A DNA stretch of 64,000 nucleotides from Candidatus Doudnabacteria bacterium (GCA_041644975.1 JBAZQX010000002.1:84603-148602); one strand, 5' to 3'; shown: positions 1 through 60,926, numbered from the stretch's first letter. The notes: a model not told the origin generated them from the sequence alone. Numbers and translations are program-made.

Positions 1-117
1 TTTGTGAAAAAGTAAGCGACAAGATGACAAAGAATGCGTGTTATAGGGAGTATGCAATTAACCTTTCTGATAAATAAATTTTATTGTATAATAGCATAAA
101 GGATTAAACAAAATCAG

Positions 118-873
118 ATGTCCAAATTAAAAATATTTATTCTAATCTTCGTAGTTGTTGCTTTTGTTTTTGGTATTTATAAATCGGGTTTAATTTCTAA
201 AGTAACAAAAAAAGAAACTGGAGAGAAAATTGGTACTTTTATCTCTGAGGATAGGAATTTTTCAGTCCCATCTGTTTACCATATTGTCAATGTTCCTTAT
301 TATAGTGAAAAGAATTGGTGTTGGGGGTCAAGTACCTTGATGCTTTTAATGGAAAGAGGGTTTACGGAAAAGGAAATCCAAAACGCTCGGGCTGTTATTA
401 AAAATGAGGGTCGTGGAGGACCACCTGATATGTTTATCGCTTTTCAAAAGTATGGGTTGGTTGATAAAGTTCGTATCGCCTATTCAAAAAAATATGTAAA
501 AGAATATGCAGATTTTTACAACAGCCAACTCTTAGTTAATCCAGCAGAACAGACCATGCTTTTTGATAATCAGGATGAGGCATTTAATTATCTAAAATTC
601 TTGATTTCTTCAGATGTGTTGGTGATGATAGTTGTCCATAATGGCAACCATTTTGTTATTGCCACAGGTTATGATGATAACTATGTTTATACCAATGATC
701 CTGGTTGGGATAATGGCTATGATTATAAAATTGATTCGGATCTCGAATTAAAGCAAAGAAGAATTGCCGTGGATGATTTCTTGGAAGAGTGGAGTATTGG
801 AGGCCAAGCAGAAGAAATTGGAGAAATGATTGGCTTTCCCGGTGATTATGGAATGATTTGGCTGGAGAATTAA
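118..873 (+). CDS. C39-like papain-fold cysteine peptidase domain protein, N-terminal TM/signal anchor
   Basis: 251-aa ORF. Hydrophobic N-terminus. Cys motif NWCWGSS and downstream His in HNGNHFVIATGYDDN resemble the Peptidase_C39-like (BtrH-type) catalytic dyad. A-rich leader before the ATG. Confidence 0.6.
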   Translation: MSKLKIFILIFVVVAFVFGIYKSGLISKVTKKETGEKIGTFISEDRNFSVPSVYHIVNVPYYSEKNWCWGSSTLMLLMERGFTEKEIQNARAVIKNEGRGGPPDMFIAFQKYGLVDKVRIAYSKKYVKEYADFYNSQLLVNPAEQTMLFDNQDEAFNYLKFLISSDVLVMIVVHNGNHFVIATGYDDNYVYTNDPGWDNGYDYKIDSDLELKQRRIAVDDFLEEWSIGGQAEEIGEMIGFPGDYGMIWLEN

Positions 874-891
874 GAAGGTTAAATAAGAAAA

Positions 892-1260
892 TTGTGTGAG
901 AGGGGGGATTTGATAGTTAAAAATAGCTTCTTTATTGGAGAAATAGGGGTCGACTCTATTTTTTTTAAGATTTATCGCTTTAGCGATGGGCAGGCCATTG
1001 AGCCGGACTTTGTGTTGTTTTTAAAAGAAAAAGGAGGCAAAAAAACTTTATCATACCAGCTTTTTGTTGAGCCGAAAGGCAACAGGGGTTTGATTGAGGA
1101 TAAATGGAAGGAAGACTTTTTAAAGGAAATAGAAGCGCAGTTTAGGATTGAAACCTTATTTGAGAAAGGTAAATACAAAATTATTGGTCTTCCTTTCTAT
1201 AATGAACAGAACACTAAACAGGAGTTTAGTAATACATTTAAGGAAAAATTAGCTTTATAA
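892..1260 (+). CDS. hypothetical protein (TTG start in the ORF track; start uncertain)
   Basis: 122-aa ORF immediately downstream of the peptidase gene on the same strand. No recognisable motif. Confidence 0.3.
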   Translation: MCERGDLIVKNSFFIGEIGVDSIFFKIYRFSDGQAIEPDFVLFLKEKGGKKTLSYQLFVEPKGNRGLIEDKWKEDFLKEIEAQFRIETLFEKGKYKIIGLPFYNEQNTKQEFSNTFKEKLAL

Positions 1261-1276
1261 TCAATAATTTACTCAA

Positions 1277-1528
1277 ATGAATTTAAAGGAATTTATATCT
1301 AAAACAATTAATGACATAGTAGAAGGGGTGGAAGAAGCGTCGGAAAAATTAAAGGGAAAAAATAAAGAGATTGGGATATATTCTGCAGGTAGTTCTGACC
1401 AGCGACATATTGAGTTTGATGTCGCGGTCACAGTGGATAATAAGAATAAAAATGAGAAAAGTGGAGGTGGTGGAATTAGGGTATTGAGCATAGTTCAGGT
1501 AAGTGGAGGTCTTCAAGCAAAAAAATAA
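1277..1528 (+). CDS. hypothetical small protein
   Basis: 83-aa ORF with a 16-bp gap after the previous ORF. Gly-rich C-terminus (SGGGGIRV...SGGLQAKK). Confidence 0.35.
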   Translation: MNLKEFISKTINDIVEGVEEASEKLKGKNKEIGIYSAGSSDQRHIEFDVAVTVDNKNKNEKSGGGGIRVLSIVQVSGGLQAKK

Positions 1529-1687
1529 CTGAGTCATCCGATTCAACAGTTAGTAGAATTAAATTTGGTCTCAGAATTAAAGATATAAAAAGAAAATAAA
1601 TTATTCGCTATTGACTGTGTTTTTTGCAAATATGGGTGGGCGGTAAATAAACGCGCAAAAAATTAAAGAATAATAAATAATGAATGT

Positions 1688-1826
1688 TGGGGTGATGGAA
1701 CAAAATTTGACAGATTAAGTTTGTTGAAAAATCATTTTTTGAAAACAAGTGTTTTCTTGCATAATTTTTATTTTTTTATTGATTTATAGATTTGGATCAG
1801 TTCGGAAAATAGGTAATCTGCGGAGC
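1688..1826 (+). repeat. intergenic repeat family A, copy 1 (with short B-like leader)
   Basis: gaaaacaagtgttttcttgcataat...ttgatttatagattt...aataggtaa(t/c)c(t/c)gcggagc. Near-identical to copies at 5405 and 8810. Lies 170 bp upstream of the 1994 gene. Confidence 0.75.
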
Positions 1827-1993
1827 CATTCGACGGGCTCGGGGTCTCAAAAAGGTACCTGACACCTTTTCTTTTCTCTGGCGGCGGCGGTTGTTATTTT
1901 GCCGGTTTTTAATTTTTTGACAATAAAAATATTAAGGAGTAGGCTGATGGTAAACAAGGGGGGTTATTATTAATAATTAAATTAAATAAAAAT

Positions 1994-4900
1994 ATGAAAA
2001 AATATACATCGTTTGTGTTAGTCGTTTTTTCTGTGGTATTTGTCTCTATGTTTGCAAGGGGGGCCTCTGCTTTTACCGGAGGCGACGGTTCTTCTGGAAA
2101 CCCTTATCAAATAACTAATTGCGTTCAGTTGCAAGAGATGAACAATAACTTGACTGCAAATTATGTTTTAATAAATGATATTGATTGTTCTGATACTGTT
2201 AACTGGAATTCTGGAGCCGGACTTGCGCCTATCGGAACACCGGCCTCCCCATTTACAGGAACTTTTGATGGACAAGAGCATAAAATAACTGGCTTGTTCA
2301 TAAACAGGCCTTCTACTAATTATGTTGGTTTGTTTGGCAAGAATTCTGGTACAATACAAAATGTTGGTTTAGTAGATGTTGACATAACTGGTAATGATTA
2401 TGTGGGAGGACTAAGGGGTTATAATGAAGGAGCCATAACAAACTCCTATGCAACTGGAAGAGTAAGTGGCAGATATTATGTAGGAGGATTAGTTGGTGTA
2501 AATGTGGGAGCTATAACAAACTCCTATGCAACTGGAAGAGTAAGTGGTGGTGCTTATTTAGGAGGATTAGTTGGTTGGAGTAATGTAGCTATAACAAACT
2601 CCTATGCAACTGGAAATGTAACTGGTGGTGATTATTTAGGAGGATTAGTTGGTTTTAATGGGGGAGTAGGAGCCATAACAAACTCCTATGCAATTGGAAA
2701 TGTAAGTGGTACTAATGGTAATGTAGGAGGATTAGTTGGTTTTAATTATGCAGGAGCCATAACAAACTCCTATGCAACTGGAAGAGTAAGTGGTGGTGCT
2801 TATGTGGGAGGGTTAGTTGGTTGGAGTTATTATTATAGAGGAACCATAACAAATTCTTATTGGGATACAGAAACATCTGGTCAGCCTACGAGTGCGGGTG
2901 GAACAGGAAAAACAACAGCAGGAATGAAACAACAATCCACTTTTGTGGGTTGGGATTTTGCTACTATATGGGCGATTAAGGAAGGAGTTAGTTATCCTTA
3001 TTTCTCATGGCAAATTCCTCCTGTCGTAGATTCAGACGGCGATGGTTATTCTTCAGCCGTGGATTGTAATGACAACAATCCCAATATTCATCCGGGTGCA
3101 ACAGAGGTCTGTGATGGTGTGGATAATGATTGTGATGGTGCGATTGATGAGGGTTTAGTAGGACCTTATACTCCTAATCAGATGGGTGTTTGTGCAGGTT
3201 CGAATATGAGTTGTGCAGGTGTAAATGGTTGGGTTGTAACATATCCTTCAAATTATGAGCCTACAGAAGTATCATGTGATGGTAAGGATAATGATTGTGA
3301 TGGAACAATTGACGAATTTTGTGATACAACGCCACCTGTCGCCCCCGATGCTCCGGACCTGCAAGCAGCCAGCGATACGGGCTCTTCCGATACCGATAAC
3401 ATTACCAACGACAATACTCCCTCCTTTGACATCACCGGACTTGAATCCAACAGCACGGTGACTGTTTACGATGGCAGTAATATCTTGGGAACAATGGTTA
3501 TCCCGGGCGGCTACACTTTTGGAACCTTTACACCCGCAAGCCCGATGAATGAAGGTATATACGTCATTACGGCTACCCAGACAGATGCGGCTGGCAATGT
3601 CGGCCCGATATCACCGGCAATGGTGCCCAATTTGCTTATTGATACAACCCCGCCTGTAATTGCTGCCCACGCTGACGTTACCGTTGAAGCCACTTCTCCA
3701 GCCGGTGCAGTTGTTACTTATGAATTGCCAACCGCTACTGACAACTATGATACTAACGTGGTAGTGACATGTACTCCAGTTTCTGGTTCAACATTCCCAC
3801 TAGGCGATACCACCGTGACCTGTACCGCAACAGATTTGGCAGGCAATAATACTATCCTGGCCACCAGGACTGTACATGTTAATGTTACCGTTGAGGCCGC
3901 TTGTTCGGCCGGAGCAGTTGTTACTTATGAATTGCCAACCGCAACCGATAATAATGGTGCAAGTGTTATTATGACCTGCACTTTTCCTCCAGGTTCAACA
4001 TTCCCACTAGGCGATACCACCGTGACCTGTACCGCAACAGATTCATCAGGCATCGTAATTTCAACCACATTTGTTGTTCATGTTGTAGATTCTACTCCGC
4101 CAGTAATTACTGCTCATGCTGACGTTACCGTTGAGGCCATCTCTGCGGCCGGAGCAGTTGTTACTTATGAATTGCCAACCGCAACCGACAACTATGATGC
4201 TAACGTGGCAGTGACATGCACTCCAGTTTCTGGTTCAATTTTTCCTCTCGGTGATACGACCGTAACCTGCAACGCTCATGATAACGCCGGCAACGTTGCA
4301 ATCCCGACAACGTTCAAGGTTTCAGTACAGGATAAAACCGCGCCGACAATTACAATAATTACACCTGTGTCATATGGACTTTATACAGTTGGAACAGCTC
4401 TTGATTTTTCTGCCACCGATGACCAGAGTGGCATTGCGAGTGTTGTAGGAAATCTGAAAAATACGCTTGACGTATCAAAACAGGTCGCAAGCGGCGATGT
4501 GCCTGAACCGGGTGTTTATACGCTAGTAGTAACTGCCACGGACAATGCCGGCAACATCAAGGTAAGCGATACCGTGAACTTCGTTGTCTATGATCCAAGT
4601 GGTGGGTTTGCCATCGGTGGAGGATGGTTCTATCCGGATGATTCGGAAGGCAGTTTATCTTCTGCGGGCAAGGCCAATTTCGGCTTCAATGCAAAATATA
4701 AAGACTCCAGTTCCACTGGCAACCTTGAATTCCAGTACAAGAGTGGTCCTGACATCAATTTAAAAAGCACCACGATTGACTGGCTGGTCATCAGCGAAAC
4801 AAGCGCTCAATTTCAGGGTACGGGCACCATTAACGGCACCGGACTCTATACTTTCCGAGTAATGGCAAAAGACAATGCTGAACCGGGAATAGGAGCCGAC

Positions 4901-5005
4901 CATTTTGATATAAGAATCTGGGGCGGTACCGATACCAGCGCGGGAATTGTCTACAAAGCAAAGAATACCCTTTCCGGCGGTAATATTGTGGTTCACAAGA
5001 AATAA
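1994..5005 (+). CDS. large secreted surface/adhesin-like protein with GLUG-type Gly-rich repeats, MopE-like Cys/Asp metal-binding motifs and HYR-like Ig-fold repeats
   Basis: 1003-aa ORF with an N-terminal signal peptide. About 8 tandem repeats of ITNSYATG(R/N)VSGG.Y(L/V)GGLVG (GLUG-like). Two CDGxDNDCDG(A/T)IDE motifs. Three repeats of ~100 aa of type PPVI(A/T)AHADVTVEA..AGAVVTYELPTATDN..TFPLGDTTVTCTATD (HYR-like). Confidence 0.85.
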   Translation: MKKYTSFVLVVFSVVFVSMFARGASAFTGGDGSSGNPYQITNCVQLQEMNNNLTANYVLINDIDCSDTVNWNSGAGLAPIGTPASPFTGTFDGQEHKITGLFINRPSTNYVGLFGKNSGTIQNVGLVDVDITGNDYVGGLRGYNEGAITNSYATGRVSGRYYVGGLVGVNVGAITNSYATGRVSGGAYLGGLVGWSNVAITNSYATGNVTGGDYLGGLVGFNGGVGAITNSYAIGNVSGTNGNVGGLVGFNYAGAITNSYATGRVSGGAYVGGLVGWSYYYRGTITNSYWDTETSGQPTSAGGTGKTTAGMKQQSTFVGWDFATIWAIKEGVSYPYFSWQIPPVVDSDGDGYSSAVDCNDNNPNIHPGATEVCDGVDNDCDGAIDEGLVGPYTPNQMGVCAGSNMSCAGVNGWVVTYPSNYEPTEVSCDGKDNDCDGTIDEFCDTTPPVAPDAPDLQAASDTGSSDTDNITNDNTPSFDITGLESNSTVTVYDGSNILGTMVIPGGYTFGTFTPASPMNEGIYVITATQTDAAGNVGPISPAMVPNLLIDTTPPVIAAHADVTVEATSPAGAVVTYELPTATDNYDTNVVVTCTPVSGSTFPLGDTTVTCTATDLAGNNTILATRTVHVNVTVEAACSAGAVVTYELPTATDNNGASVIMTCTFPPGSTFPLGDTTVTCTATDSSGIVISTTFVVHVVDSTPPVITAHADVTVEAISAAGAVVTYELPTATDNYDANVAVTCTPVSGSIFPLGDTTVTCNAHDNAGNVAIPTTFKVSVQDKTAPTITIITPVSYGLYTVGTALDFSATDDQSGIASVVGNLKNTLDVSKQVASGDVPEPGVYTLVVTATDNAGNIKVSDTVNFVVYDPSGGFAIGGGWFYPDDSEGSLSSAGKANFGFNAKYKDSSSTGNLEFQYKSGPDINLKSTTIDWLVISETSAQFQGTGTINGTGLYTFRVMAKDNAEPGIGADHFDIRIWGGTDTSAGIVYKAKNTLSGGNIVVHKK
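2441..2830 (+). repeat. intragenic near-identical DNA tandem repeats (GLUG-like unit, ~70 bp x ~6) within the 1994 gene
   Basis: aacaaactcctatgcaactggaagagtaagtggtgg...ggaggattagttgg recurs at about 2448, 2518, 2588, 2680, 2758. Confidence 0.8.
3640..4290 (+). repeat. intragenic ~240-bp HYR-like repeats (3 copies) with conserved DNA blocks
   Basis: gacgttaccgttgaggcc...gccggagcagttgttacttatgaattgccaaccgc...ccactaggcgataccaccgtgacctgtaccgcaacagat recurs at about 3675, 3885, 4125. Confidence 0.8.
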
Positions 5006-5070
5006 AAAGGGGGAGATGTCCCTCCAGAGGCGGGCAAGCAGGTACCATTAATTTACCCATGACCATTGCA

Positions 5071-5115
5071 ATAGATAAATATAGTAAGTAGCGTGGTGGG
5101 GTAAAAATTGCTATA
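5071..5115 (+). repeat. repeat family B (GC-rich palindromic element), truncated copy
   Basis: atatagtaagtagcgtggtggggtaaaaattgctatactgaag. Retains the ends (atatagtgagtagc ... ggggtggggtaaaat) but lacks the central palindrome. Confidence 0.6.
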
Positions 5116-5123
5116 CTGAAGTT

Positions 5124-5306
5124 ATGAAAAAATATCCTCTGGGCCTATATGTAATTGGTGTTATTATCGTTCTCGTGCTTATAAACTACATCGCGTGGTT
5201 CGTGGGAGGAGAGGCGAAGTTAAAAAGTTTTGAACTACTCTCCGGCGGCTTTTTGTTAGGAATGCTGGCAATGTATATAGCGGTGCATATCTATCGGTGG
5301 AAATAA
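5124..5306 (+). CDS. small hydrophobic membrane protein (hypothetical)
   Basis: 60-aa ORF with two predicted TM segments. It lies inside an intergenic repeat region, so it could be spurious. Confidence 0.3.
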   Translation: MKKYPLGLYVIGVIIVLVLINYIAWFVGGEAKLKSFELLSGGFLLGMLAMYIAVHIYRWK

Positions 5307-5404
5307 GAGACCTTATTGAACACCAAATTGTCTCAAATCCGGCATGTAAATATACTCATTTTGTCGCTGGATAATAGTTCTAACATTGTCCACCTAGGGG
5401 AAGA

Positions 5405-5544
5405 GGTTTTATTAAAAAGTTTCGAAAGGAGTTATACCTATTTGTAAAATATTTTGAAAACAAGTGTTTTCTTGCATAATCTTTATTTTTTCTTTTATTG
5501 ATTTATAGATTTTGATTAGTTTAGAAGATAGGTAACCCGCGGAG
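5405..5544 (+). repeat. intergenic repeat family A, copy 2
   Basis: ttttattaaaaagtttcgaaagg...gaaaacaagtgttttcttgcataatctttatttttt...gatttatagattttgattagtttagaagataggtaacccgcggagc, followed by an A9 tract. 100 bp upstream of the SPFH gene. Confidence 0.8.
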
Positions 5545-5644
5545 CTAAAAAAAAATTGCCATTTGAGCAGTTTTTGGTAGAATGAAATTAGTAGAATAAA
5601 AAAGGTCGAAGGATTTAAAAATTAAATTTTAACAAAATAAAAAT

Positions 5645-6457
5645 ATGGATAATATAAATGTAAGCCAAAGAATAAAAGACATAAAACCAGGAAAAGTTAT
5701 CTCCTGCATAATTATTGGAGTGTTTGTCCTAACGTTTATCCTTAGTGCTTTTGGAACCATAGGAGCGGGTGAGCGAGGAGTGCTTCTTCAGTTTGGAGCA
5801 GTTCAAGATAAAGTATTTAATGAGGGGCTCTATTTTAAAATACCGTTTATTCAGAAAGTAGTGAAAATGGATGTAAAAATTCAAAAAGATGAAATCCCAG
5901 CAAGCGCTTCTTCTAAGGATCTACAGGTAGTAACTTCTAGAATTGCTTTGAATTATCATCTTGATCCAAGCGTAGTAAATAAAATCTGGCAGGAGGTGGG
6001 GAAAAATTACAACACCCGTATCATTGCTCCTTCTATCCAAGAAGGAGTGAAAGCGGTAACGGCAAAATTCACAGCCGAGGAATTGATTACCAAAAGAGAA
6101 GAAGTGAAAGAACAAATCAAAGCAAATCTTACTGACAGATTATTTGAACATGCCATTATAGTTGATGAGTTTAACATTATTGATTTTGAATTTTCGCCAG
6201 CATTTAATGATGCCATTGAATCTAAAGTTAGAGCCGAACAGCTAAAACTTAAAGCTGATAGAGATTTAGAAAGAATAAAAATTGAGAAAGAACAAATGAT
6301 AGCGGCTGCTCAAGGTAAGGCAGAAGCTATCAGAATTGAAGCGCAAGCATTAATGCAGAATCCTAAAGTGGTAGAACTTCGTTGGATAGAAAAGTGGGAT
6401 GGAAAAGTTCCAACTTACTGGGGAGAAGCAAGTCCATTTATCGGAATAAATAAGTAA
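5645..6457 (+). CDS. SPFH/band-7 (prohibitin/HflC-like) family membrane protein
   Basis: 270 aa with N-terminal TM. GERGVLLQFGAV...FKIPFIQKV...DV matches the SPFH domain core. C-terminal coiled-coil region rich in AEQLKLKADRDLERIKIE. Confidence 0.9.
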   Translation: MDNINVSQRIKDIKPGKVISCIIIGVFVLTFILSAFGTIGAGERGVLLQFGAVQDKVFNEGLYFKIPFIQKVVKMDVKIQKDEIPASASSKDLQVVTSRIALNYHLDPSVVNKIWQEVGKNYNTRIIAPSIQEGVKAVTAKFTAEELITKREEVKEQIKANLTDRLFEHAIIVDEFNIIDFEFSPAFNDAIESKVRAEQLKLKADRDLERIKIEKEQMIAAAQGKAEAIRIEAQALMQNPKVVELRWIEKWDGKVPTYWGEASPFIGINK

Positions 6458-6473
6458 AATAATGAATGGATTT

Positions 6474-6517
6474 AAAAAATCGTCTTTTTGGCGATTTTTT
6501 GATAAAATAAAAAAAGA
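6474..6517 (+). terminator. family-C hairpin acting as terminator of the SPFH gene, followed by TGnTAAAAT-like box
   Basis: aaaaaatcgtctttttggcgattttttgataaaataaaaaaag lies 17 nt after the stop at 6457. Stem atcgtc/ggcgat followed by T6. Confidence 0.6.
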
Positions 6518-6520
6518 TAT

Positions 6521-6560
6521 AGTGAGTAGCAGAGTAGGGTATACCCGAAATGTCAGACCA
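6521..6560 (+). repeat. repeat family B, truncated copy
   Basis: atatagtgagtagcagagtagggtatacccg, immediately after the family-C hairpin that terminates the SPFH gene. Confidence 0.55.
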
Positions 6561-6775
6561 GCGCTAATAATTGTCTAACTTGTGCTATAATAACTTCAGG
6601 AACAGGACAAGCTCTCTCCTATTCAAAAGTTCTAAAGCTGTCCTGCCAAGCGAGCTATGAAAAGCTTAAATGATATTCCAAAAGTTTGCAGTGCGTGCGG
6701 CAGTAGAATGCTAATAGTAAGTTGTTAAAGCTATTTTAAAGTTTGCGAATCCTTTCAAAAAGTAGTTCTTATTTC

Positions 6776-6808
6776 GCACGGTCATTCATAAAAGACCGTG
6801 CTTTTTTT
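6776..6808 (+). terminator. rho-independent terminator-like hairpin in an ORF-free region
   Basis: gcacggtc-attcataaaa-gaccgtgc followed by T7. About 320 bp downstream of the nearest + gene stop, which suggests an unannotated small transcript. Confidence 0.6.
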
Positions 6809-6924
6809 GTATTTATTTTTTGATTACTTAAATATATTTAGCATTTGTAAGAGGAAGATTTTCAAATTCTTTCATGATTTTGTACCAATCTATTGTCCTG
6901 AATGTGTCCAATAGGGGGAGCAAA

Positions 6925-6957
6925 TAAAAAATCGCCCGAAAGGCGGTTTTTTGATTA
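6925..6957 (+). repeat. family-C-like hairpin (stand-alone)
   Basis: aaaaaatcgcccgaaaggcggttttttgattag inside the ORF-free 6480-7110 region. Confidence 0.45.
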
Positions 6958-7112
6958 GTATATTTAATGAAATATATTTGACACTTTAATGAGTTATGGA
7001 GAGAATTAAAAGCTGAGTATATATTGTCTTTGCTGTCATTATAAAATAATTAATATTACATTTTCAGAGTTTCCTTCCTCTTTTCGGGTAAAGTATAGAG
7101 TCTTAATGATTT

Positions 7113-7865
7113 ATGATTTTTATTACTAATATTTTAAAATTCGTCGCCATCATAATTGTTTTTTTGTTAGCGCCGATATCATTTTTAATAATTTTTTTAA
7201 TTGCTAATTCAGAATATAGAAAAGAGAAAAATCATAATAAAGATTGTAATATTTTTCATATACTTGATGATTATTTTGAGATAACTAAAAAGCTAATTAA
7301 AAAATTAACTAAGTTAGATTTTTTTGATTGGATCAACCTTATTTTGTTTCTCTCGGGAATAATATTGATGGCATCATTCAGGTATTTTTATAAAATATCA
7401 TATGAGCAGTTATTGACAGTCATTATTTTATGGTTTACAGGGATTGCTATTTTACAATACACCAAAGAAACATACTGGTTAAGACAATTACAGCAAAAGA
7501 ATTTAAAGTTACAACGAGAGCATTTAAAATTTGAGAGAGCACCTTTCGTTATTATTCATTTCGAGAAGCCAGAAACATTTATATTGAAAAACGTCGGGAA
7601 GGGCGTTGCTCGTAATGTTCGATGGGAGGTTAGAGGCGAAAAATTTATATATCCAAGAAAGACCGTAATTTCTCCAAATGAAGGATCAACATGGATTCAA
7701 AATGAGGGTTACAGAAAATTTAATCCAGCAGAAAGTAATAAACCGTATGAGATCATAATTGTTTATGAAGATTTAAGCGGGATTAAATATTATACTAGAC
7801 TAAAGTCTGGTGAAACGGTTGATGACTATGAAGTTTTAAACTATTCTGAATATTTTGAAAATTGA
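7113..7865 (+). CDS. hypothetical membrane protein
   Basis: 250-aa ORF with 3-4 N-terminal TM helices followed by a soluble C-terminal domain. No recognisable motif. Confidence 0.5.
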   Translation: MIFITNILKFVAIIIVFLLAPISFLIIFLIANSEYRKEKNHNKDCNIFHILDDYFEITKKLIKKLTKLDFFDWINLILFLSGIILMASFRYFYKISYEQLLTVIILWFTGIAILQYTKETYWLRQLQQKNLKLQREHLKFERAPFVIIHFEKPETFILKNVGKGVARNVRWEVRGEKFIYPRKTVISPNEGSTWIQNEGYRKFNPAESNKPYEIIIVYEDLSGIKYYTRLKSGETVDDYEVLNYSEYFEN

Positions 7866-7888
7866 ACCTAACAAATCAGCAAATTTAA

Positions 7889-8075
7889 GGTAAGGTCTTG
7901 AATCGTGAATCCCCGTTCCTTTTTTATTGTAGAATATATAGTGAGCCACGGGGTGGGGTAAAATTTGATAAACTAAGATTGCTGTTTTAAAACAGTAATG
8001 TAAATATATTCATTTTGTTGCCTAATAATGGTTCTAACCCTTCGGCAAGCTCAGGGCAAGCTATTATTTACGATG
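7889..8075 (+). repeat. composite repeat: terminator-like hairpin + family B (short form) + downstream conserved tail (gtaaatatattcattttgttgcctaataatggttctaaccc ttcggcaag...)
   Basis: ggtaaggtcttgaatcgtgaatcccc-tttttt-attgtagaatatatagtgagccacggggtggggtaaaatttgataaactaagattgc... The tail segment recurs at 5335-5400, 15150-15330 and 17895-17945. Confidence 0.7.
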
Positions 8076-8225
8076 TGGAGCAAATTAAAATAACTGCTTA
8101 TCGATGCGGTTATTTTTTTGATATCCAGAATTGGATTTAAACTCTTTAATTTCTTCGATTTAAATAACCTGCTATAATAAAAATATCCCCCAAGCAAGCT
8201 ATAGTTGGGTAATTGATTAATTATT

Positions 8226-8729
8226 ATGAATAAGCATTTAAAAGTTAAATCTTTCCAAGAAACTTTAAATGCCGGCATGTGCGGGCCGGCTTCTTTGAAA
8301 ATTTTGCTATCTTACTACGGGATTAAAAGGGACGAAAAAGAGTTGGCAGATTTATGCGGAACAAAAAAGGGTTTAGGCACTGATGATCAAGGGATAAAGA
8401 GAGTAGCCGAAAGTTTAGGATTCAAGGTAAAAATAAAAAACAACAGCAGTTTTAAGGATATAGAAAGATGGCTAGATAAAGATGTGCCTATTATTGTAAA
8501 TTGGTTTACTCGTGGAAGAGCGGATTATACGGACGCAGATGTTCCAGATGGCCATTATTCAGTGGTTTGCGGAATTGATGATCAATCTATTTATTTACAG
8601 GATCCGGAAATAGGCAGGATCCGAAAAATCAAAAAAAATGATTTTAAACGAGTATGGTTCGACTTCTCCGGCGAACTGATCAAACCCAATGAGCTCATTA
8701 TTATGCAGATGATTGCTATATATAAATAG
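8226..8729 (+). CDS. stand-alone C39-like cysteine peptidase domain protein
   Basis: 167 aa. CGPASLKILLSYYG (Cys in the Q/C-box-like context) and GHYSVVCGIDD (His) follow the typical peptidase C39 domain layout. No ABC transporter is attached. Confidence 0.7.
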   Translation: MNKHLKVKSFQETLNAGMCGPASLKILLSYYGIKRDEKELADLCGTKKGLGTDDQGIKRVAESLGFKVKIKNNSSFKDIERWLDKDVPIIVNWFTRGRADYTDADVPDGHYSVVCGIDDQSIYLQDPEIGRIRKIKKNDFKRVWFDFSGELIKPNELIIMQMIAIYK

Positions 8730-8815
8730 GGAGTAGCGGGTCACGTCGTTCGCGAACGACGTGGCGGGGTGGGGTAAAACCTAATAGATTAGGCTCGTCG
8801 AGAGTGGATTTTTTT
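8725..8815 (+). repeat. repeat family B, copy with 11-bp-stem palindrome
   Basis: agtagcgggtcacgtcgttcgcgaacgacgtggcggggtggggtaaaacctaatagattagg. Palindrome cacgtcgttcgcgaacgacgtg. Overlaps the stop of the 8226 gene. Confidence 0.8.
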
Positions 8816-8936
8816 TAAAAAGTTTCAAAAGGTTGTAAAATATTTTGATAACAAGCGATTTTTTGCATAATCTTTATCTTTTCTTTGATTGATTGATAGA
8901 TTTTGATTAGTTTAGAAGATAGGTAACCCGCGGAGC
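8810..8936 (+). repeat. intergenic repeat family A, copy 3
   Basis: ttttttaaaaagtttcaaaagg...gataacaagcgattttttgcataatctttatctttt...gattgatagattttgattagtttagaagataggtaacccgcggagc. Directly follows a family-B copy. About 215 bp upstream of the 9153 gene. Confidence 0.8.
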
Positions 8937-8946
8937 CAGAATTCCA

Positions 8947-8978
8947 GAAATCGCTGCTTTGGCGATTTTTTTATAGAG
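8947..8978 (+). repeat. family-C-like hairpin directly after repeat A copy 3
   Basis: gaaatcgctgctttggcgatttttttatagag. Stem atcgc(t)/(g)gcgat plus T7. Confidence 0.45.
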
Positions 8979-9152
8979 TGAGAATAGATTTATTGAGATT
9001 AATATCGATAGAAATGCCAAAAAGCAAGACCTGATCACGAGATTGTAATGGTGGATTTATTTCCATGACCGTGATATAAAGAGGTTGTCACAGAGACAGT
9101 ATTAAGTCCGTAACATTTAACACTGGGTAGTTTTCCAGGGAGGATTTTCGAA

Positions 9153-9842
9153 ATGAAAGTATGGTTGAGTGTCATAGTTTTAATAATCTTTAGCGTATTA
9201 GTGGCTTATGGCGCGGGCGATGAGAAGATCCCGGGCATAGAGAATGGATTACAGCTTTCCAAGAATCGCTTTGCGCCGCCTGAACAGAGGTATTCTTATG
9301 AAGGCGTATCGCGGGTGCCGAGTAGCTGGAAGATGGTAAATGCCAAAGGTCAGGCGGTTATTGCTACCGAGAAAGCAAGCAAGAAGCCAATCGGGCAAGG
9401 TATTTTGCTCTTTAAAGAGACGGTCTATGTGCAGACCGAGTTTGCGCCGCCCGAAGGGCCATGGTCTTTCCAGACAGCGATAAATTTTTCCTTACATGGC
9501 GGCTATGTCGTTTTTAATAATTTTGAGACATGGAAGGATGAGTTTGTTTATCCAGATACGCTCAATAAAGTTCAGGGTTTGCCTACGCAGGCGACTGCTA
9601 AAAACAAAGCAGGCAAAACCCTTGCTTCGGTCAAAGTGTTGCGCTTTATCGTCGATGCAGGTTCTAATCAATTCGTCGGCGTTGAGGTTGTGGAAACGCA
9701 TTTCGGTCAGAATGGTAAAGTAAGTTTCCGTTGCGTTTCCCAGTTTGAACATCCGTCAGGCTTGAAGCGGTTTGAGAAGGTACTCTCGGGCAAGAAGGAG
9801 AAAGAGTATTTTCCGATTTGGCCGGTAAGCACGATTATGTAA
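9153..9842 (+). CDS. hypothetical secreted protein
   Basis: 229-aa ORF with a signal peptide (MKVWLSVIVLIIFSVLVAYGAG). Noticeably GC-richer than its flanks. Confidence 0.55.
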   Translation: MKVWLSVIVLIIFSVLVAYGAGDEKIPGIENGLQLSKNRFAPPEQRYSYEGVSRVPSSWKMVNAKGQAVIATEKASKKPIGQGILLFKETVYVQTEFAPPEGPWSFQTAINFSLHGGYVVFNNFETWKDEFVYPDTLNKVQGLPTQATAKNKAGKTLASVKVLRFIVDAGSNQFVGVEVVETHFGQNGKVSFRCVSQFEHPSGLKRFEKVLSGKKEKEYFPIWPVSTIM

Positions 9843-10010
9843 ATAATGCCCGTAATACCCATCTGTTGGCGGGTCGCTTTGGCGGGCTAACTAATGCATT
9901 CAGGACCAAAAAGAACTTGGAGGGTATAATTATTAATAAATTATTACTTTGCAGTTGTCCTATCTCTCTCTTAATAATTCTATTTTGGAAGAAAGAGCAA
10001 GGGATAATTA

Positions 10011-10042
10011 GGGTCAAGTTTTGAAACTTGACCCCTTTTTTA
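10011..10042 (+). terminator. rho-independent terminator
   Basis: gggtcaag-ttttgaaa-cttgaccc followed by T6. Confidence 0.7.
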
Positions 10043-10116
10043 TTGACTTTTAGGAAAATTAGTTTAATATGGGGGTTAGTTTAGTTAGTTCATTAAACTT
10101 GGTTCAATAAGAGAAG

Positions 10117-10917
10117 GTGACAAATATGAATCTACGATCTTGGTTTCAGAGAAGATATGTAAATGAGATGGTAAAAGTTTTAATTGAGGATGATAGAAAA
10201 TGCCAAGAACTCATCAGGAGAGTAGAGGCGGATTATGGGGTCAAAATAAAGCTACCGGACTCAAACAGCATACCAAGTTGTTTTCTCGTTGATATGCTGG
10301 AAAGAGCCTTTACAACTGGAAAGATTGTTTTACCTCCGAAGATTACCGTCCTTGATTTCGGGTGCGGCGATTGGTTCTATGCCCCCTTTTTACTGGGTTT
10401 TCTAAAACATTGGCAAGGATTCAGGGAGGTTTGTCTGGAGGGGATTGATTTTCCCAGTCGGAAAAATAAAAGGTCCCTACGCCGATTGCAGAAAGGAGAA
10501 CTTGATTTAAGAGTCCATTGGGGCGACATTATGAATTTGTCCCAAGAGAACAAATACGACATAATTTTTGCAAGCCATATGGTTGCTGGGCCCCATCATT
10601 GTAAAATGTGGGGGGTTCCTTATTACAAGCCCAGTATATTGTTCTCTTATTTACAATCTTTAGGAAAGCCCGACTGCTTGTTCGTTGTAATAGCTTATGA
10701 ATATGCTGGAGAAGACGCGATTTTTCGTTGCTTTAAATCAAAGTTAACAGAGTTTTTCTATCAACCTCTGGTCGAAAAAAAGTTTAGTTCCTTTCTTTAT
10801 AATCGTCGCGGCTTTCATGACAACTCAATTTGCATCAGCAGGTCTCCATTTGTGGACCTAGAAGCATGCACGAGATATGAAGAGGAGATTGAGGAAATGG
10901 ATGCAATACTTTATTAA
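10117..10917 (+). CDS. putative class I SAM-dependent methyltransferase-like protein
   Basis: 266 aa. Motif I-like VLDFGCGDW. An acidic residue ends the following strand (LEGIDF). DIIFASH resembles motif II. Weak, fold-level call only. Confidence 0.5.
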   Translation: MTNMNLRSWFQRRYVNEMVKVLIEDDRKCQELIRRVEADYGVKIKLPDSNSIPSCFLVDMLERAFTTGKIVLPPKITVLDFGCGDWFYAPFLLGFLKHWQGFREVCLEGIDFPSRKNKRSLRRLQKGELDLRVHWGDIMNLSQENKYDIIFASHMVAGPHHCKMWGVPYYKPSILFSYLQSLGKPDCLFVVIAYEYAGEDAIFRCFKSKLTEFFYQPLVEKKFSSFLYNRRGFHDNSICISRSPFVDLEACTRYEEEIEEMDAILY

Positions 10918-10921
10918 ACAA

Positions 10922-10952
10922 AGGACGGCTCTATCGGGAGCGTCCTTTTATA
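10922..10952 (+). terminator. rho-independent terminator after the 10117 gene
   Basis: aggacggctctatcgggagcgtcct followed by ttttat. Starts 5 nt after the stop. Confidence 0.6.
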
Positions 10953-10984
10953 ATTTTAAAGATTACCATTATTTGTTCCGTCTG

Positions 10985-11100
10985 AGATATAGTGAGTAGC
11001 AGTTCATGTCGTTCGCGAGCCCCGTCGCTCTTGAGCGACAGGGCGAGCGACGTGGCGGGGCAAGGTAAAATATGATAAACTAAGCTCGCGGATTTAAATC
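10985..11100 (+). repeat. repeat family B, long form (extra internal hairpin)
   Basis: atatagtgagtagcagttcatgtcgttcgcgag-ccccgtcgctcttgagcgacagggcgag-cgacgtggcggggcaaggtaaaatatgataaactaagctcgcggatttaaatcagg. The internal ccccgtcgctcttgagcgacagggcgag insert is identical to that in the 17.8-kb copy. Confidence 0.8.
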
Positions 11101-16311: not shown

Positions 16312-16367
16312 AACTTGACCTTTTTTATTTCTATGCACTTTGCAGACAGATTCCACCAAAGGGAGCT

Positions 16368-16410
16368 AAAAAAATCGCCAAAAGGGCGATTTTTTGGTAA
16401 AATAAAAAAG
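16368..16410 (+). promoter_or_regulatory. family-C module: atcgcc-aaaa-gggcgat hairpin + T6 + extended -10-like TGgTAAAAT, about 30 nt upstream of the ATG
   Basis: aaaaaaatcgccaaaagggcgattttttggtaaaataaaaaag. Near-identical 80-bp block, including the first codons ATGCATTTRAAAAAT, at 21470-21555. Confidence 0.5.
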
Positions 16411-17774: not shown

Positions 17775-17900
17775 CTACAATATATAGCGCGAGTAGCGGG
17801 CCACGTCGCTCGCGAGCCCCGTCGCTCTTGAGCGACAGGGCGAGCGACGTGGCAGGATGGGGTAAAATCTGATAAACTAAGATTGCGGACTTAAATTTAG
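17775..17900 (+). repeat. repeat family B, long form
   Basis: atatatagcgcgagtagcgggccacgtcgctcgcgag-ccccgtcgctcttgagcgacagggcgag-cgacgtggcaggatggggtaaaatctgataaactaagattgcggacttaaatttagg. Preceded by the ggggtcaggtcttgaaatttgcccc T5 hairpin. Confidence 0.85.
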
Positions 17901-18720: not shown

Positions 18721-18782
18721 TTCTACAATATATAGCGCGAGTAGCGGGCCACGTCGCTCGCGAGCGACGTGGCGGGGCAGGC
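18721..18782 (+). repeat. repeat family B, short form
   Basis: tacaatatatagcgcgagtagcgggccacgtcgctcgcgagcgacgtggcggggcagg. Perfect 13-bp-arm palindrome ccacgtcgctcgcgagcgacgtgg. Preceded by the same terminator hairpin as at 17740. Confidence 0.85.
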
Positions 18783-18852
18783 ATCATCTACACAAGCGAG
18801 CAAAAGTTTTTTATAAACCGAGCTATTTGCTTGGAAAGTCTTTTTATAAAGT

Positions 18853-18894
18853 GAATTGCCAAAAAGGCGAATTTTTTGTAAAATAAAATAAATA
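18853..18894 (+). promoter_or_regulatory. degenerate family-C module upstream of the P-type ATPase gene
   Basis: gaattgccaaaaaggcgaattttttgtaaaataaaataaatacttATG. Weaker stem but the same T-run plus gtaaaat box. Confidence 0.35.
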
Positions 18895-21458: not shown

Positions 21459-21469
21459 TTTTAGATTAT

Positions 21470-21512
21470 AAAATCGCTAAAAGGGCGATTTTTTGGTAGA
21501 ATAGAAAAAGGA
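21470..21512 (+). promoter_or_regulatory. family-C module upstream of the 21541 gene
   Basis: aaaatcgctaaaagggcgattttttggtagaatagaaaaagg (TGGTAGAAT extended -10-like). Paralogous to 16368-16440. Confidence 0.5.
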
Positions 21513-24622: not shown

Positions 24623-24859
24623 GGTTCTATATTCTAACAAAATAGGTTCTAATATTATCTATCCAGGGGAGTCCATATTGAAAAATGGCTTGAATAAGCC
24701 TTTTTTTAATGAGACTTGCATAACATACAATTCTATGCTTTAATTTAGAGATTATTTTTGATGTGTTCTTTAATCAAATCTCAAGATCATTTTCGTTTGT
24801 ATCGGAGGATATAGATCTGATAAAAAATAATTCACAATGAAAAACAGGAGGTTTTAGAG

Positions 24860-37284: not shown

Positions 37285-37460
37285 GAATAAACCCCGTTAG
37301 ACCCCATTAGAAATTTATTTCTAATGGGGTAAAATAAATCTCGCCTGTTTTGGGCGAGGTTTATTGTTTATACTTCCATTATGGTTTATTCCGTCCAGGA
37401 TAATAACGGAATAGTTTATCCCGTTAGATGTTTGCTATATAACGGGGTTTACCCCTATTT
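37285..37460 (+). repeat. repeat family D (nested palindromes built on ccccgttagaaataaatttctaacgggg), complex copy
   Basis: accccgttagaccccattagaaatttatttctaatggggt ... ctcgcctgttttgggcgag ... agtttatcccgttag ... taacggggtttacccc. Lies between the 37067 gene and the first NUDIX gene. Confidence 0.65.
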
Positions 37461-47920: not shown

Positions 47921-48559
47921 ATGGCACAAGTTCAAGCACCTCCCACTCCTTCATCAGGGGGAAGCAAAAAAACAATTATTTTGATTGTGGTGATTGTTAT
48001 CGTTGTGTGCGTGGTCGGCGCGGGGGTCGGCGGTTATTTGATTTTCAGAAAAATTAAGACAGCGGCGAAGAACAAAATTGAACAGACACTTACCAACCCC
48101 GCCGAGAATGGAGATTTGTTGAATAAGCTTTCTGAAGAGGCAGATAACAGCGATGAGGCGGCGGAAGATTTTAAAAGGGTGGAAGACGTGGAAATGGCCG
48201 ACAGCTATTTGAAGGCATTGGATTTAAGCTTTCGTCCCGTACTCACGAGCGTTTTCGGCGAAGTAAAAATTACCAACTACCAGACTGATTATTTAGGTTT
48301 GGACATGGGTCAACAATTTTTGGAATACACAGTGAGCCGCAATATCGTGGCGCGTGATCTAAATGCTATTTTGAGCAGTTTAAAACAAGCCGGTTACACG
48401 GTAGGAAGCAGCAACCAAGATAAAGATGGGGCGAGTATAGTGGCGGAGAAAAGTGAAGTGTCTTTAGAGATTACTTACTGGCATGATGATTCCACAATTG
48501 GCGTGGTCATAACACCCGTTGTCAAAGATGAAACTGGCGGGGATGGAACAGTAGAGTAA
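47921..48559 (+). CDS. hypothetical N-terminally anchored protein
   Basis: 212 aa. Pro-rich start, TM (TIILIVVIVIVVCVVGAGVGGYLIF), acidic soluble domain. Confidence 0.5.
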   Translation: MAQVQAPPTPSSGGSKKTIILIVVIVIVVCVVGAGVGGYLIFRKIKTAAKNKIEQTLTNPAENGDLLNKLSEEADNSDEAAEDFKRVEDVEMADSYLKALDLSFRPVLTSVFGEVKITNYQTDYLGLDMGQQFLEYTVSRNIVARDLNAILSSLKQAGYTVGSSNQDKDGASIVAEKSEVSLEITYWHDDSTIGVVITPVVKDETGGDGTVE

Positions 48560-48560
48560 T

Positions 48561-48597
48561 TTTACCCCGTTAGAAATAAATTTCTAACGGGATTTAC
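48561..48597 (+). repeat. repeat family D, core copy
   Basis: tttaccccgttagaaataaatttctaacgggatttac. Perfect palindrome ccgttagaaataaatttctaacgg. Starts 2 nt after the stop of the 47921 gene. Confidence 0.75.
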
Positions 48598-48647
48598 ACT
48601 ATTGGCGGCTTGCAGTAAAATAAAGCTAGAAACTAAATTTAAAATTT

Positions 48648-60880: not shown

Positions 60881-60926
60881 ATTTAAGCGATCCAGAAAGG
60901 GGAGGGGTTTTTATTCCTTAAGCATT

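Follow-up and report, generated by a model that had tools for sequence, protein, structure and literature searches.

An intergenic repeat with a tRNA-Asn-like core as a candidate end-piece of small gene modules in a Doudnabacteria lineage

Three unrelated genes of a Candidatus Doudnabacteria genome, encoding an adhesin, an SPFH protein and a secreted protein (the 9153 gene), are each preceded by a copy of the same non-coding block, here termed family A, and the question is what one repeat does in front of three such genes. In the window, by which we mean the whole 64,000-nucleotide stretch of DNA that was analysed, a repeat finder, nhmmer and blastn agree that the unit is genuine, with three direct copies on the + strand and no others. 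The repeat finder (family D4) placed them at 1723-1831, 5442-5550 and 8833-8941, and an nhmmer profile built from the three copies matched them with E values of 7.5e-33 to 2.9e-39, the next best match in the window having E = 0.64. Identities by blastn are 91.7% between copies 2 and 3, 86.6% between 1 and 2 and 79.8% between 1 and 3. The terminal 18-mer ATAGGTAAYCYGCGGAGC occurs three times against 0.17 expected (0 of 100 shuffles reached three), and the 9-mer GCGGAGCYA, searched on both strands, is present in the window only at the three copies. These are clustered within 7.2 kb and end 166, 98 and 215 nt before the next start codon (copies 1, 2 and 3), close to the 100-215 bp given in a preliminary description of the locus. 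Alignment with copies from related strains refined the limits of copies 2 and 3, and the unit is laid out as follows.

1688-1733, + strand: degenerate B-like lead-in before copy 1 (alignment)
1734-1828, + strand: copy 1, well-aligned part (repeat finder, nhmmer, alignment)
5407-5547, + strand: copy 2, full unit, directly after a degenerate C-type end (GGGGAAGAGG, 5397-5406)
8808-8938, + strand: copy 3, full unit, preceded by a B unit (8730-8807)
1757-1765, + strand: -10-like box TTGCATAAT in copy 1, with a T-run before it (consensus-level match only)
5472-5480, + strand: -10-like box TTGCATAAT in copy 2 (consensus-level match only)
8863-8871, + strand: -10-like box TTGCATAAT in copy 3 (consensus-level match only)

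A family A unit is a discrete, putatively exchangeable stretch of ∼95-140 nt of non-coding DNA. Its parts are an AT-rich arm with a T-run and the TTGCATAAT box, a ∼29-nt box (AGTTYRGAARRYAGGTAAYCY) and, at the 3′ end, the core GCGGAGC(C)A. Copies with a decayed 5′ half still keep this core and the 3′ box. On the left of the unit stand GGGAGCGG, GAGAGTGG and GGAAGAGG, which resemble the right-hand core only loosely, and a search for conserved inverted repeats in A, terminal or otherwise, found none. An origin as a MITE or IS-derived element was rejected, since A has neither terminal inverted repeats nor target-site duplications. The wider search that the preliminary description had called for found A confined to one strain cluster, with seven members in all (three in the window, one each in L013 and L097, and two in L096); neither 80 related SPFH loci nor scans of public collections yielded a copy.

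Each copy had also been said to follow a family-B unit. This is correct for copy 3, where the B unit is clear, but copy 1 has only a degenerate B and copy 2 follows a C-type fragment, its B unit being another 330 nt away on the upstream side, ahead of a 60-aa ORF. The elements around the copies are listed below. The C-type element at 7983-8082 has a hairpin and a C39 peptidase gene downstream, and the C-type motif, GGTTCTAAC-RTCGTCCA-N5-6-GGGAGCYA, is widespread, unlike the lineage-specific A.

1829-1912, + strand: GC-rich mini-element (TTCGACGGGCTCGGGGTCTC) and two terminator-like hairpins, after copy 1 and upstream of the adhesin gene
5329-5406, + strand: C-type fragment (..GTTCTAACATTGTCCACCTAGGGGAAGAGG), end of the 60-aa-ORF mini-module upstream of copy 2
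5547-5583, + strand: start of the SPFH module, A9 (5547-5555) as its A-arm, then a hairpin and T-run
7983-8082, + strand: C-type element with the end TGTGGAGCA (8074-8082), interrupted by a GC mini-element
8730-8807, + strand: B unit, consisting of GAGTAGC, a perfect GC palindrome and then GGGGTAAAAC
8944-8980, + strand: start of the 9153-gene module, hairpin AAATCGCtgctttgGCGATTT and T-run; present in L096 and L098 without A

Between each copy of A and its gene lie a hairpin with a T-run and then the gene's own promoter-like module, and by orthology this hairpin belongs to the downstream module rather than to A. The A-tract/hairpin/T-tract design is shared by many other genes. In the SPFH module, which starts outside the repeat, the promoter-like site comprises TTGCCA (5556-5561), a 16-nt spacer and a TG-extended TAGAAT (5578-5583); both the module start and the arrangement hairpin-TTTTTGGTAGAAT-5′UTR are conserved in relatives without A. 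The 5′-UTR or leader role considered in the preliminary description is not supported, in view of this separation of A from the gene, of SPFH orthologs that keep promoter and 5′UTR without A, and of the 9153-gene module without A in L096 and L098. A shared promoter or UP-element cassette fits no better, since the SPFH and 9153 modules exist without A and the spacing from A to the next -10 varies. Because their promoter modules also occur without it, A is dispensable for the SPFH and 9153 genes. Phase variation through the A9 tract after copy 2 was not borne out: the tract is identical in L002 (an independent run), the closest strain, L013, reads GAGAAAAAA with the same total length, and the tract, located before the -35-like hexamer, is the 5′ arm of a hairpin whose other arm is the T-run.

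Three links lay outside the preliminary description, namely tRNA-Asn, strain-variable gene content and recombination junctions at the 3′ end of A. An intact tRNA-Asn(GTT) gene (L001 1746-1820, + strand) heads the array; it lies 2.5 kb upstream of the window, 4.4 kb before copy 1, and is co-oriented with the A copies. Every copy of A terminates in 9-10 nt identical to the 3′ end of this tRNA, the core corresponding to the 3′ strand of its acceptor, the discriminator and CCA. Beyond these 9-10 nt, the similarity of A to tRNA-Asn is no greater than that of shuffled sequence.

1820-1828, + strand: core GCGGAGCCA of copy 1, identical to the last 9 nt of tRNA-Asn
5539-5547, + strand: core GCGGAGCTA of copy 2; the SPFH module begins directly after it
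8930-8938, + strand: core GCGGAGCCA of copy 3; CGCGGAGCCA matches the tRNA-Asn end over 10 nt
1-10034, no strand: window part of an 11-kb strain-variable block that starts 951 nt upstream of the window

The comparison with other strains covers few of them, and several of the contigs are short Logan or metagenome assemblies. The 11-kb block, which contains all three copies of A, is absent from the close relative L107/L109, where its flanks are 94-96% identical at the nucleotide level and where no A copies were found (21 kb searched in L107). In L107, a 430-nt mini-module is inserted between the tRNA-Asn core and the hairpin. Positions 1535-3224 of L096 correspond to L001 1812-3516 at 94% identity. 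What stands before the module carrying an HD-domain gene differs between strains: tRNA-Asn in the window strain, an A copy in L096 and a C-type end in L107, with the switch point at GGAGC for all three partners. Relative to L096, a 9.8-kb segment (L001 3517 to window 8936) starts directly 3′ of the GGAGCC of a C-type end, and its right end is the GGAGCC of copy 3; the core of copy 3 is the breakpoint, and the 9153-gene module begins 3′ of it. The SPFH module directly follows tRNA-Asn in L020, L040 and L076, tRNA-Gln in L017 and L066, a C-type end in L054, a bare GCGGAGCA in L005, and an A copy in the window and L013. One and the same downstream module has three kinds of partner across strains, a tRNA, a C-type end or A, and the switch lies in or next to GGAGC. 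Junctions at the core were found for L096/L001, L096/window and L107/L001, whereas some other indels break elsewhere: the breakpoints of the 11-kb block against L107, of a 263/266-aa gene indel and of the right end of SPFH homology (6511) fall in hairpins or B units, so that general recombination among intergenic repeats is also at work.

At matching positions, the replacement or conversion of A copies outpaces change at silent sites. Copy 2 is 86% identical to its L013 counterpart, against 94.8% at third codon positions, and copy 3 is 70-78% identical to L96a, against 91% at third positions; the B unit adjoining copy 3 is 92% identical to its L096 ortholog. The variants are mosaic, and all four combinations of 5′-half and 3′-half variants can be read from the alignment.

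We propose, with a probability of roughly 45%, that small gene modules accreted at tRNA-Asn and that A is their end, resembling an attachment site. It would form the 3′ end of self-contained modules that accumulated downstream of the tRNA gene in one narrow lineage of Doudnabacteria, bacteria with tiny genomes. The core would be the crossover point through which modules are inserted, excised and swapped, either by site-specific recombination with an enzyme acting in trans or by recombination via short homology, while the AT-rich arm would serve as the arm of the attachment site and A itself could be a gene-less mini-module. The module after a core always starts directly, with its own A-tract/hairpin/T-tract/-10 unit, and the left ends of modules have no sequence in common. 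The latter weighs against the proposal, as do the shortness of the identity with the tRNA, the breakpoints outside the core and the lack of a recombinase among the ORFs scanned. The three downstream genes would each have arrived in a separately acquired module, which would explain why they are unrelated, and A would have no regulatory effect on them.

Two explanations give A a function in expression. As a shared cis-regulatory cassette, UP-like or an activator platform, it would lie at ∼-47 to -150 relative to the promoters and co-regulate envelope genes (adhesin, SPFH and the secreted 9153 protein). All three products are membrane or secreted proteins, judged by signals and membrane anchors read from the sequence, the copies are all co-oriented with the genes, and, relative to the SPFH promoter, the conserved 3′ box occupies ∼-47 to -75. 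We nevertheless regard this as highly improbable, since the SPFH and 9153 orthologs have the same promoter modules without A, the distance from the core to the following -10 is not constant (to the next promoter it is roughly 80 nt or more in copy 1 and L96b), other strains have A before different genes (the HD-domain gene and 80- and 153-aa ORFs), and A turns over fast. A family of sibling small-RNA genes, also envisaged in the preliminary description, is unlikely too, though less so. The RNAs, AU-rich and ∼84-105 nt long, would begin ∼7 nt 3′ of the internal T-run/TTGCATAAT box and be terminated by the hairpin and T-run beyond the core, their conserved part being AGUUYRGAARRYAGGUAAYCYGCGGAGC. 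A -10-like hexamer (a consensus-level match) lies 53-65 nt upstream of the core in seven of seven copies and persists despite a diverged 5′ half, as TAGAAT in L96b and TATCAT in L097; a strong hairpin with a T-run follows within 5-25 nt, again in all seven, giving predicted RNAs of 84-105 nt; and the half copy in L096 has a terminator on its upstream side and a hairpin on its downstream side, much like a gene slot of its own. However, -10-like hexamers turn up frequently in AT-rich sequence (in 12 kb, 46 promoter-like sites were found where 34 were expected), the terminator is part of the downstream module rather than of A, and positionally matching copies change faster than silent sites. Folding energies are no better than those of shuffles (z = +0.5, -1.8, -2.1 and -0.4), the consensus fold is weak, with AU and GU pairs and almost no compensatory changes, no Rfam family matched at gathering or E-value thresholds, and a long complement to the box was not found within the window. 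The streptococcal csRNAs and Listeria LhrC1-5 are sibling small RNAs that likewise form several paralogous intergenic units of ∼90-100 nt, each preceded by a -10 box and followed by an intrinsic terminator. A differs from them in that its fold is neither stable nor covarying, it shows no seed that can be recognised (for instance an anti-Shine-Dalgarno sequence), the terminator is not co-inherited with the unit, and its turnover is faster than that of silent sites.

A further explanation grants A no role of its own: it would be a remnant of local segmental duplications in a plastic region, its only contribution being homology that ordinary RecA-type recombination, or allelic replacement by taken-up DNA, can use. 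The copies do lie within 7.2 kb and in one strain cluster, B units and hairpins likewise coincide with indel boundaries, and Pfam and PHROGs reveal no recombinase nearby. But the sharp 3′ end at the tRNA-identical core recurs as a junction with the tRNA, a C-type end or A, and the 3′ box and core are conserved where the 5′ half has decayed, which makes this account doubtful. Since their flanks are unrelated, the copies are not segmental duplications of genes plus spacer.

The proposed accretion of modules at tRNA-Asn would have a parallel in islands that lack an integrase and accrete in tandem at a tRNA or tmRNA gene. Precedents are the Dehalococcoides ssrA islands, with att direct repeats, in which the shared segment is ∼20 bp as opposed to only 9-10 nt of tRNA here (PMC3146451), and the accretion of integrase-less, cis-mobilizable elements among ICE/IME/CIME (PMC5704250). 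In such arrays, as here, an intact small-RNA gene stands at one end, strain-specific cargo between the repeats disrupts synteny, and some units have no recombination genes. Co-oriented repeats of the 3′ end of that gene lie downstream, each with a further conserved motif just upstream of it, and the short cores of A would be their counterpart here. In contrast to them, the conserved arm here is ∼100 nt and AT-rich, the units are only 0.14 to ∼4 kb, non-tRNA C-type ends are also partners, and no integrase was found in 68 kb. Pfam and PHROGs searches of the window ORFs of at least 100 aa, of a few shorter ones close to A and of the ORFs in the preceding 4.3 kb found no integrase, transposase or other recombinase.

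Integron cassette arrays with conserved attC sites, such as the Vibrio chromosomal repeats, show a similar layout, with direct repeats of ∼100-140 nt at the 3′ end of unrelated gene units, crossover at the very end of the repeat, variable left ends and one primary head site. Here, however, the scanned ORFs contain no intI or integrase domain, the modules have their own promoters and terminators, and the head site is the end of a tRNA gene. A itself was rejected as an attC: no integrase domain accompanies it, and it lacks a conserved inverted repeat or an imperfect palindrome with R″/L″/L′/R′ sites, and GTTRRRY/RYYYAAC cores, ending in GCGGAGCCA rather than GTTRRRY and folding about as well as shuffles. 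The modular intergenic repeats of compact genomes (pneumococcal BOX and RUP, Neisseria Correia elements, enterobacterial BIMEs and ERIC) are also short, exclusively intergenic and non-coding, and are built from few sub-modules, here A, B, C, hairpins and the GC mini-element, some with promoter-like or terminator-like parts. A is unlike them in having no terminal inverted repeats or target duplications, a tRNA-identical end, and very few copies, all co-oriented in one variable block. A more general idea, which we consider speculative and rather unlikely, is that Patescibacteria practise integron-like gene shuffling without an integron, exchanging promoter-gene-terminator modules at cores of the form ..GGAGC(C)A that mimic the 3′ end of a tRNA. 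Such cores would be borne by the tRNA-Asn and tRNA-Gln genes and by two classes of end-piece, A and C-type, and would be joined by a recombinase encoded elsewhere or by an as yet unrecognised enzyme.

A minor observation concerns copy 3, in which GCGATTTTTTGCATAAT is like the 3′ half of the usual hairpin/promoter module of this genome.

The repeated block that the preliminary description had placed upstream of three unrelated genes (family A, an intergenic repeat of ∼95-140 nt) was confirmed by a repeat finder as three plus-strand copies:

1723-1831, + strand, A copy 1, upstream of the adhesin gene
5442-5550, + strand, A copy 2, upstream of the SPFH gene
8833-8941, + strand, A copy 3, upstream of the 9153 gene (named by its window position)

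A profile built from these copies recovers them in the 64-kb window at E = 7.5e-33 to 2.9e-39, with nothing else below E = 0.6. Pairwise identities are 91.7% (copies 2 and 3), 86.6% (1 and 2) and 79.8% (1 and 3), the terminal 18-mer is present three times where 0.17 occurrences would be expected, and the sequences flanking the three copies are unrelated to one another. No tRNA or Rfam family overlaps the copies, Rfam being empty at gathering and E-value thresholds and ARAGORN reporting no tRNA across the window. In the protein records the window belongs to a Candidatus Doudnabacteria bacterium MAG with WC650_ locus tags. The window DNA is also contained in ENA contig ERZ27249422 k141_31134, which is identical over the overlap and adds 4.3 kb upstream (L001; other L numbers denote comparison loci). 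Further copies were located as follows:

L013 2150-2263, A copy upstream of SPFH (98% amino-acid identity)
L097 871-966, A copy upstream of the 9153 ortholog, from a sample shared with L013
L096 481-590, A copy (L96a), positional counterpart of copy 3
L096 1488-1545, A half-copy (L96b), 3′ half only

Judged from the sequences searched, the family is very narrow, copies beyond the window being seen only in close strains. A is absent from 80 SPFH loci of JGI metagenomes (∼0.7 Mb searched), from eight loci around the homolog of a 60-aa ORF and from 21 kb of the close relative L107, and BLAST against phage and plasmid records returned zero matches. Scans of public collections used exact patterns, the first of which began with GAA and would miss copies of the L013 type; they gave a single chance match, in an Acetatifactor coding region, among GTDB species genomes (genome_contigs), zero matches in JGI metagenomes (metagenome_contigs) and chance matches only in IMG/VR (viral_contigs; 1 plus 14 scattered short ones, one phage coding sequence in 5 samples). 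A weak nhmmer match in L035-L037 lies inside a membrane-protein gene and was treated as chance. Logan contig L002, from another run, begins inside copy 2 and stops inside copy 3, as short-read assemblies usually do at repeats.

The anatomy of A was read from an alignment of the seven copies. A poorly conserved, AT-rich lead-in is followed by a T-run and TTGCATAAT (with the variants TTGTATAAT in L96a, TAGAAT in L96b and TATCAT in L097), then by ∼55-65 nt of AT-rich sequence with the words TTGATT and TAGAT, and finally by a well conserved box, AGTTYRGAARRYAGGTAAYCY, and the terminal core GCGGAGC(C)A, where similarity among the copies ends. Past each copy, at 5-25 nt, an A-rich stretch leads to a GC hairpin and then to a T-run, which usually continues into TG(G)TA(A/G)AAT; the hairpins differ in sequence at each copy, and promoter and terminator calls throughout are consensus matches only. 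A palindrome in the 5′ part, GAAAACAAGTGTTTTC, was considered as a conserved operator or hairpin and rejected, being broken in copy 3, L013 and L96a, as were small ORFs within or just 3′ of A, whose frame and presence, on reading the sequences, are not conserved.

The 3′ end of A is sharp and falls at a core identical to a tRNA end. A tRNA-Asn(GTT) gene at L001 1746-1820, 2.5 kb upstream of the window, ends in ..CTCGCGGAGCCA, comprising the acceptor 3′ strand, the discriminator G and CCA. The sequence GCGGAGCCA forms the 3′ end of copies 1 and 3 and of the L097 copy, copy 3 having 10 nt in common with tRNA-Asn, and in the remaining copies one or two bases past GGAGC are different. With its last 10 nt removed, A is no more similar to tRNA-Asn than shuffled sequence is; since the likeness is confined to these bases, A is not a decayed tRNA-Asn pseudogene. 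The tRNA-Asn locus itself (L001 1408-1820, or window -2949 to -2537) consists of a partial 5′ tRNA-Asn whose D-loop region carries a GC-rich insert, a 90-aa ORF (L001 1467-1739) of GIY-YIG-nuclease-like sequence and the intact tRNA-Asn, and the insertion is missing from L107.

Comparisons between strains, which rest on few strains, several of them short metagenome or Logan contigs, reveal that the core recurs as a joint between gene modules (self-contained promoter–gene–terminator units) with three kinds of left partner. The module of an HD-domain gene (hairpin AAAAAATGGCTTATTTAAGCCATTTTTT, promoter and a gene of 451/453 aa) has three upstream partners across strains, and the switch is at GGAGC every time: tRNA-Asn in the window strain, the A half-copy in L096 (where 1535-3224 corresponds to L001 1812-3516 at 94%) and a C-type end, another intergenic repeat piece (..TTCGTTCAGCGTTTGGAGCT), in L107. 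A 430-nt mini-module in L107 sits exactly between the tRNA-Asn core and the HD-module hairpin; its parts are a hairpin, an ORF for a 60-aa membrane peptide, repeats rich in GC and a C-type end. A C-type end (..GTGTCTAGTAAGGGGAGCC) follows the HD gene in the window strain as in L096, and past it L096 continues with a GC mini-element and then the 9153 module. In the window strain the same end is followed by 9.8 kb (L001 3517 to window 8936) containing a 275-aa ORF, a C39-like peptidase, 122- and 83-aa ORFs, A1 and the adhesin, then a 60-aa ORF, A2, SPFH, a 250-aa ORF, a C39 peptidase, a B unit (a further intergenic repeat piece) and A3; the stretch closes on copy 3, at its GGAGCC, and the 9153 module is next. 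L107 and L109 are without an entire 11-kb block (L001 3405 to window 10034), the HD gene being followed directly by a 263-aa gene that is the counterpart of window 10117-10917.

In a cross-genus comparison, the SPFH module is found directly behind tRNA-Asn in L020, L040 and L076, tRNA-Gln in L017 and L066, a C-type end in L054, a bare CCCGCGGAGCA in L005 and an A copy in the window and L013. A tRNA 3′ end lies ≤170 nt from the SPFH start codon in 5 of 61 distinct upstream contexts, and GGAGC at matching distance in 6 more. Not all breakpoints are at the core: the 11-kb block, relative to L107, is bounded by two terminator T-runs, and the SPFH homology between the window and L013 stops past the SPFH terminator, at 6511. 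A 266-aa gene at 10045-11042 with weak methyltransferase-domain matches is present in the window and L107/L109 and missing in L096, L097 and L098, the indel boundaries being a terminator T-run and a point inside a B unit.

A copies at equivalent positions are more divergent than their neighbours. Copy 2 and the L013 copy, both beside SPFH, share 86% identity, against 97.5% for the SPFH coding sequence (94.8% at its third codon positions) and 92.9% for promoter with 5′UTR. Copy 3 and L96a, both following a C39 peptidase gene and B unit, are 70-78% identical; the corresponding values for their neighbours are 95.7% (coding sequence), 91.1% (third positions) and 91.8% (B unit). The L013–window homology begins at the 5′ edge of A, and 'A plus SPFH' was considered as one unit; the lower identity in A than in the coding sequence agrees better with two distinct A copies adjoining one and the same SPFH module. 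In the alignments, variant sites fall into two blocks. In the 5′ half, copies 1 and 2 share one set of variants, and copy 3 and L013 the other; in the 3′ half the pairs are copy 1 with L013 and copy 2 with copy 3, and therefore all four combinations occur. This pattern appears to be one of exchange or conversion of copies rather than of a sequence fixed at its locus.

The downstream genes are independent of A. A promoter-like site for SPFH (TTGCCA-16-TAGAAT with an upstream TG) lies 3′ of the A copy, at 5556-5583, and the hairpin-TTTTTGGTAGAAT unit and 5′UTR are kept in the A-less SPFH orthologs of L005-L010, L014, L017 and L020; where SPFH closely follows another gene (L004, L011), the 5′UTR alone is retained. 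The 9153 gene with its hairpin unit is present without A in L096 and L098. Therefore these genes neither have A as their leader nor require it as part of their promoters, and the earlier suggestions of a 5′-UTR element and a shared promoter cassette are not supported. The A9 run that had been proposed to phase-vary expression (5547-5555) is the 5′ arm of the SPFH hairpin, pairing with the T-run. It is unchanged in L002, and L013 has GAGAAAAAA of equal total length, so these assembled sequences give no sign of phase variation; an A-tract likewise precedes the hairpin at many other genes of this and related genomes. An A-tract, a GC hairpin and a T-tract that leads without a break into TG(G)TA(A/G)AAT form an arrangement common in the window and at many related loci, one unit's terminator overlapping the -35/spacer region of the next promoter and a T[CT]GCCA -35-like hexamer forming the left hairpin arm:

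5547-5583, 6470-6513, 6925-6960, 8944-8980, 16365-16405, 18850-18885 and 21464-21505, dual-purpose hairpin/promoter modules

We propose, with a probability of roughly 0.45, that A serves as the end-piece of the small gene modules that a strain-variable block carries downstream of tRNA-Asn. The whole block is present or absent between strains, and A copies are exchanged rapidly. Recombination would occur at the core, the AT-rich part of A would be an arm of the site, and a recombinase would act in trans. Our confidence stays below one half because the core is short and a search of 68 kb (window plus upstream) for recombinase domains gave none. A possible second choice is that A is a small-RNA gene, as an internal -10-like box read to the next T-run predicts transcripts of 84-105 nt in all seven copies. 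However, minus the terminal hairpin these predicted transcripts fold no better than shuffles (z = +0.48, -1.80, -2.07 and -0.39), the consensus fold is weak (-10.6 kcal/mol), and the would-be terminator hairpin is passed on together with the downstream module rather than with A. An attC-like, MITE-like or guide-RNA-scaffold nature of A was rejected for want of symmetry, terminal inverted repeats, a stable fold and an associated nuclease or recombinase, and a replication origin or parS was rejected on a GC skew uniformly positive over the window and a half-site order unlike parS.

Integron arrays, whose attC repeats are conserved, operate comparably, but the features that define them, intI and attC symmetry, were looked for in connection with A and neither was found. 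The closest described situation to the A block is in Dehalococcoides, where islands stand in tandem downstream of ssrA: 20-bp repeats of its 3′ end bound them, each repeat is preceded by an additional conserved motif, and some of the units lack integration genes (PMC3146451). Another near parallel is the accretion model for cis-mobilizable elements that have no integrase (PMC5704250).

Gene content beside tRNA-Asn differs between strains that are 94-96% identical and is built from small modules, whose joints coincide with sequence resembling a tRNA end. Candidate-phyla-radiation bacteria have genomes of ∼1 Mb with very little repeated DNA, and to our knowledge the mechanism of strain-to-strain variation of their surface and accessory genes is poorly understood. 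A dedicated mechanism would explain strain-level variation in epibiont adhesins, peptidases and membrane proteins, and would provide a simple signature in sequence by which variable modules could be located in metagenome-assembled genomes. Should there be none, the arrangement still illustrates intergenic compactness, one unit's terminator doubling as the next promoter region.

Other repeat pieces accompany these modules. A C-type motif of ∼35 nt, (A)AAYAGGTTCTAAC-RTCGTCCA-N5-6-GGGAGC(Y)A, usually followed by A-tract, hairpin and T-tract, is found repeatedly between the genes of Patescibacteria of more than one genus; Rfam has no family that it matches, and the 3′ box of A resembles an abbreviated form of it. 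A mini-element rich in GC (CTTCGACAAGCTCAGGGCAGGCC or variants of it) is inserted immediately 3′ of GGAGCC at several independent places and once lies inside a C-type element. The B unit consists of ATATAGTGAGTAGC, an optional perfect GC palindrome of 24-26 nt and GGGGTAAAAT-TGATAAACTAAG (an extended -10-like box).

L005 9270, 10742; L030 387; L054 973; L057 3178, 7312; L080 2176, 3586, 4223, C-type motif at other loci
5366-5406, 6880-6922, 8027-8082, 16340-16367, 24640-24668, degenerate C-type copies in the window
Window 1829-1848, 8036-8060; L096 3222-3285; L098 524-546; L005 ∼10770, GC mini-element
5080-5123, 7925-7975, 8730-8807, 10983-11099, 17780-17896, 18728-18780, B units

The B unit at 5080-5123 stops 6 nt ahead of the ATG of the 60-aa membrane-peptide ORF (MKKYPL..., 5124-5306), which suggests that the mRNA of this ORF may be leaderless. 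The ORF is widely conserved (L099-L106), its 90% cluster including a Brennerbacteria MAG, and L107 9468-9628 holds a similar small ORF with the MKKYPL start and promoter type in common, as a stand-alone mini-module beside tRNA-Asn. The 655 nt at 6458-7112 are without any ORF ≥40 aa and have sub-threshold Rfam matches only (L20 leader, E = 0.29); within them, 6499-6643 is 75% identical to L097 629-777, which there lies upstream of another gene. The 122-aa ORF at 892-1260 has no match in Pfam or PHROGs and reads like the C-terminal core of a PD-(D/E)xK-type nuclease (..PDFVLFL..FVEPKG..). A separate palindromic hairpin family, CCCCGTTAGAAATAAATTTCTAACGGGG, also with the word TTCTAAC, occurs at 37296-37345, 48559-48608, 50242-50291, 60568-60617 and 60924-60973.
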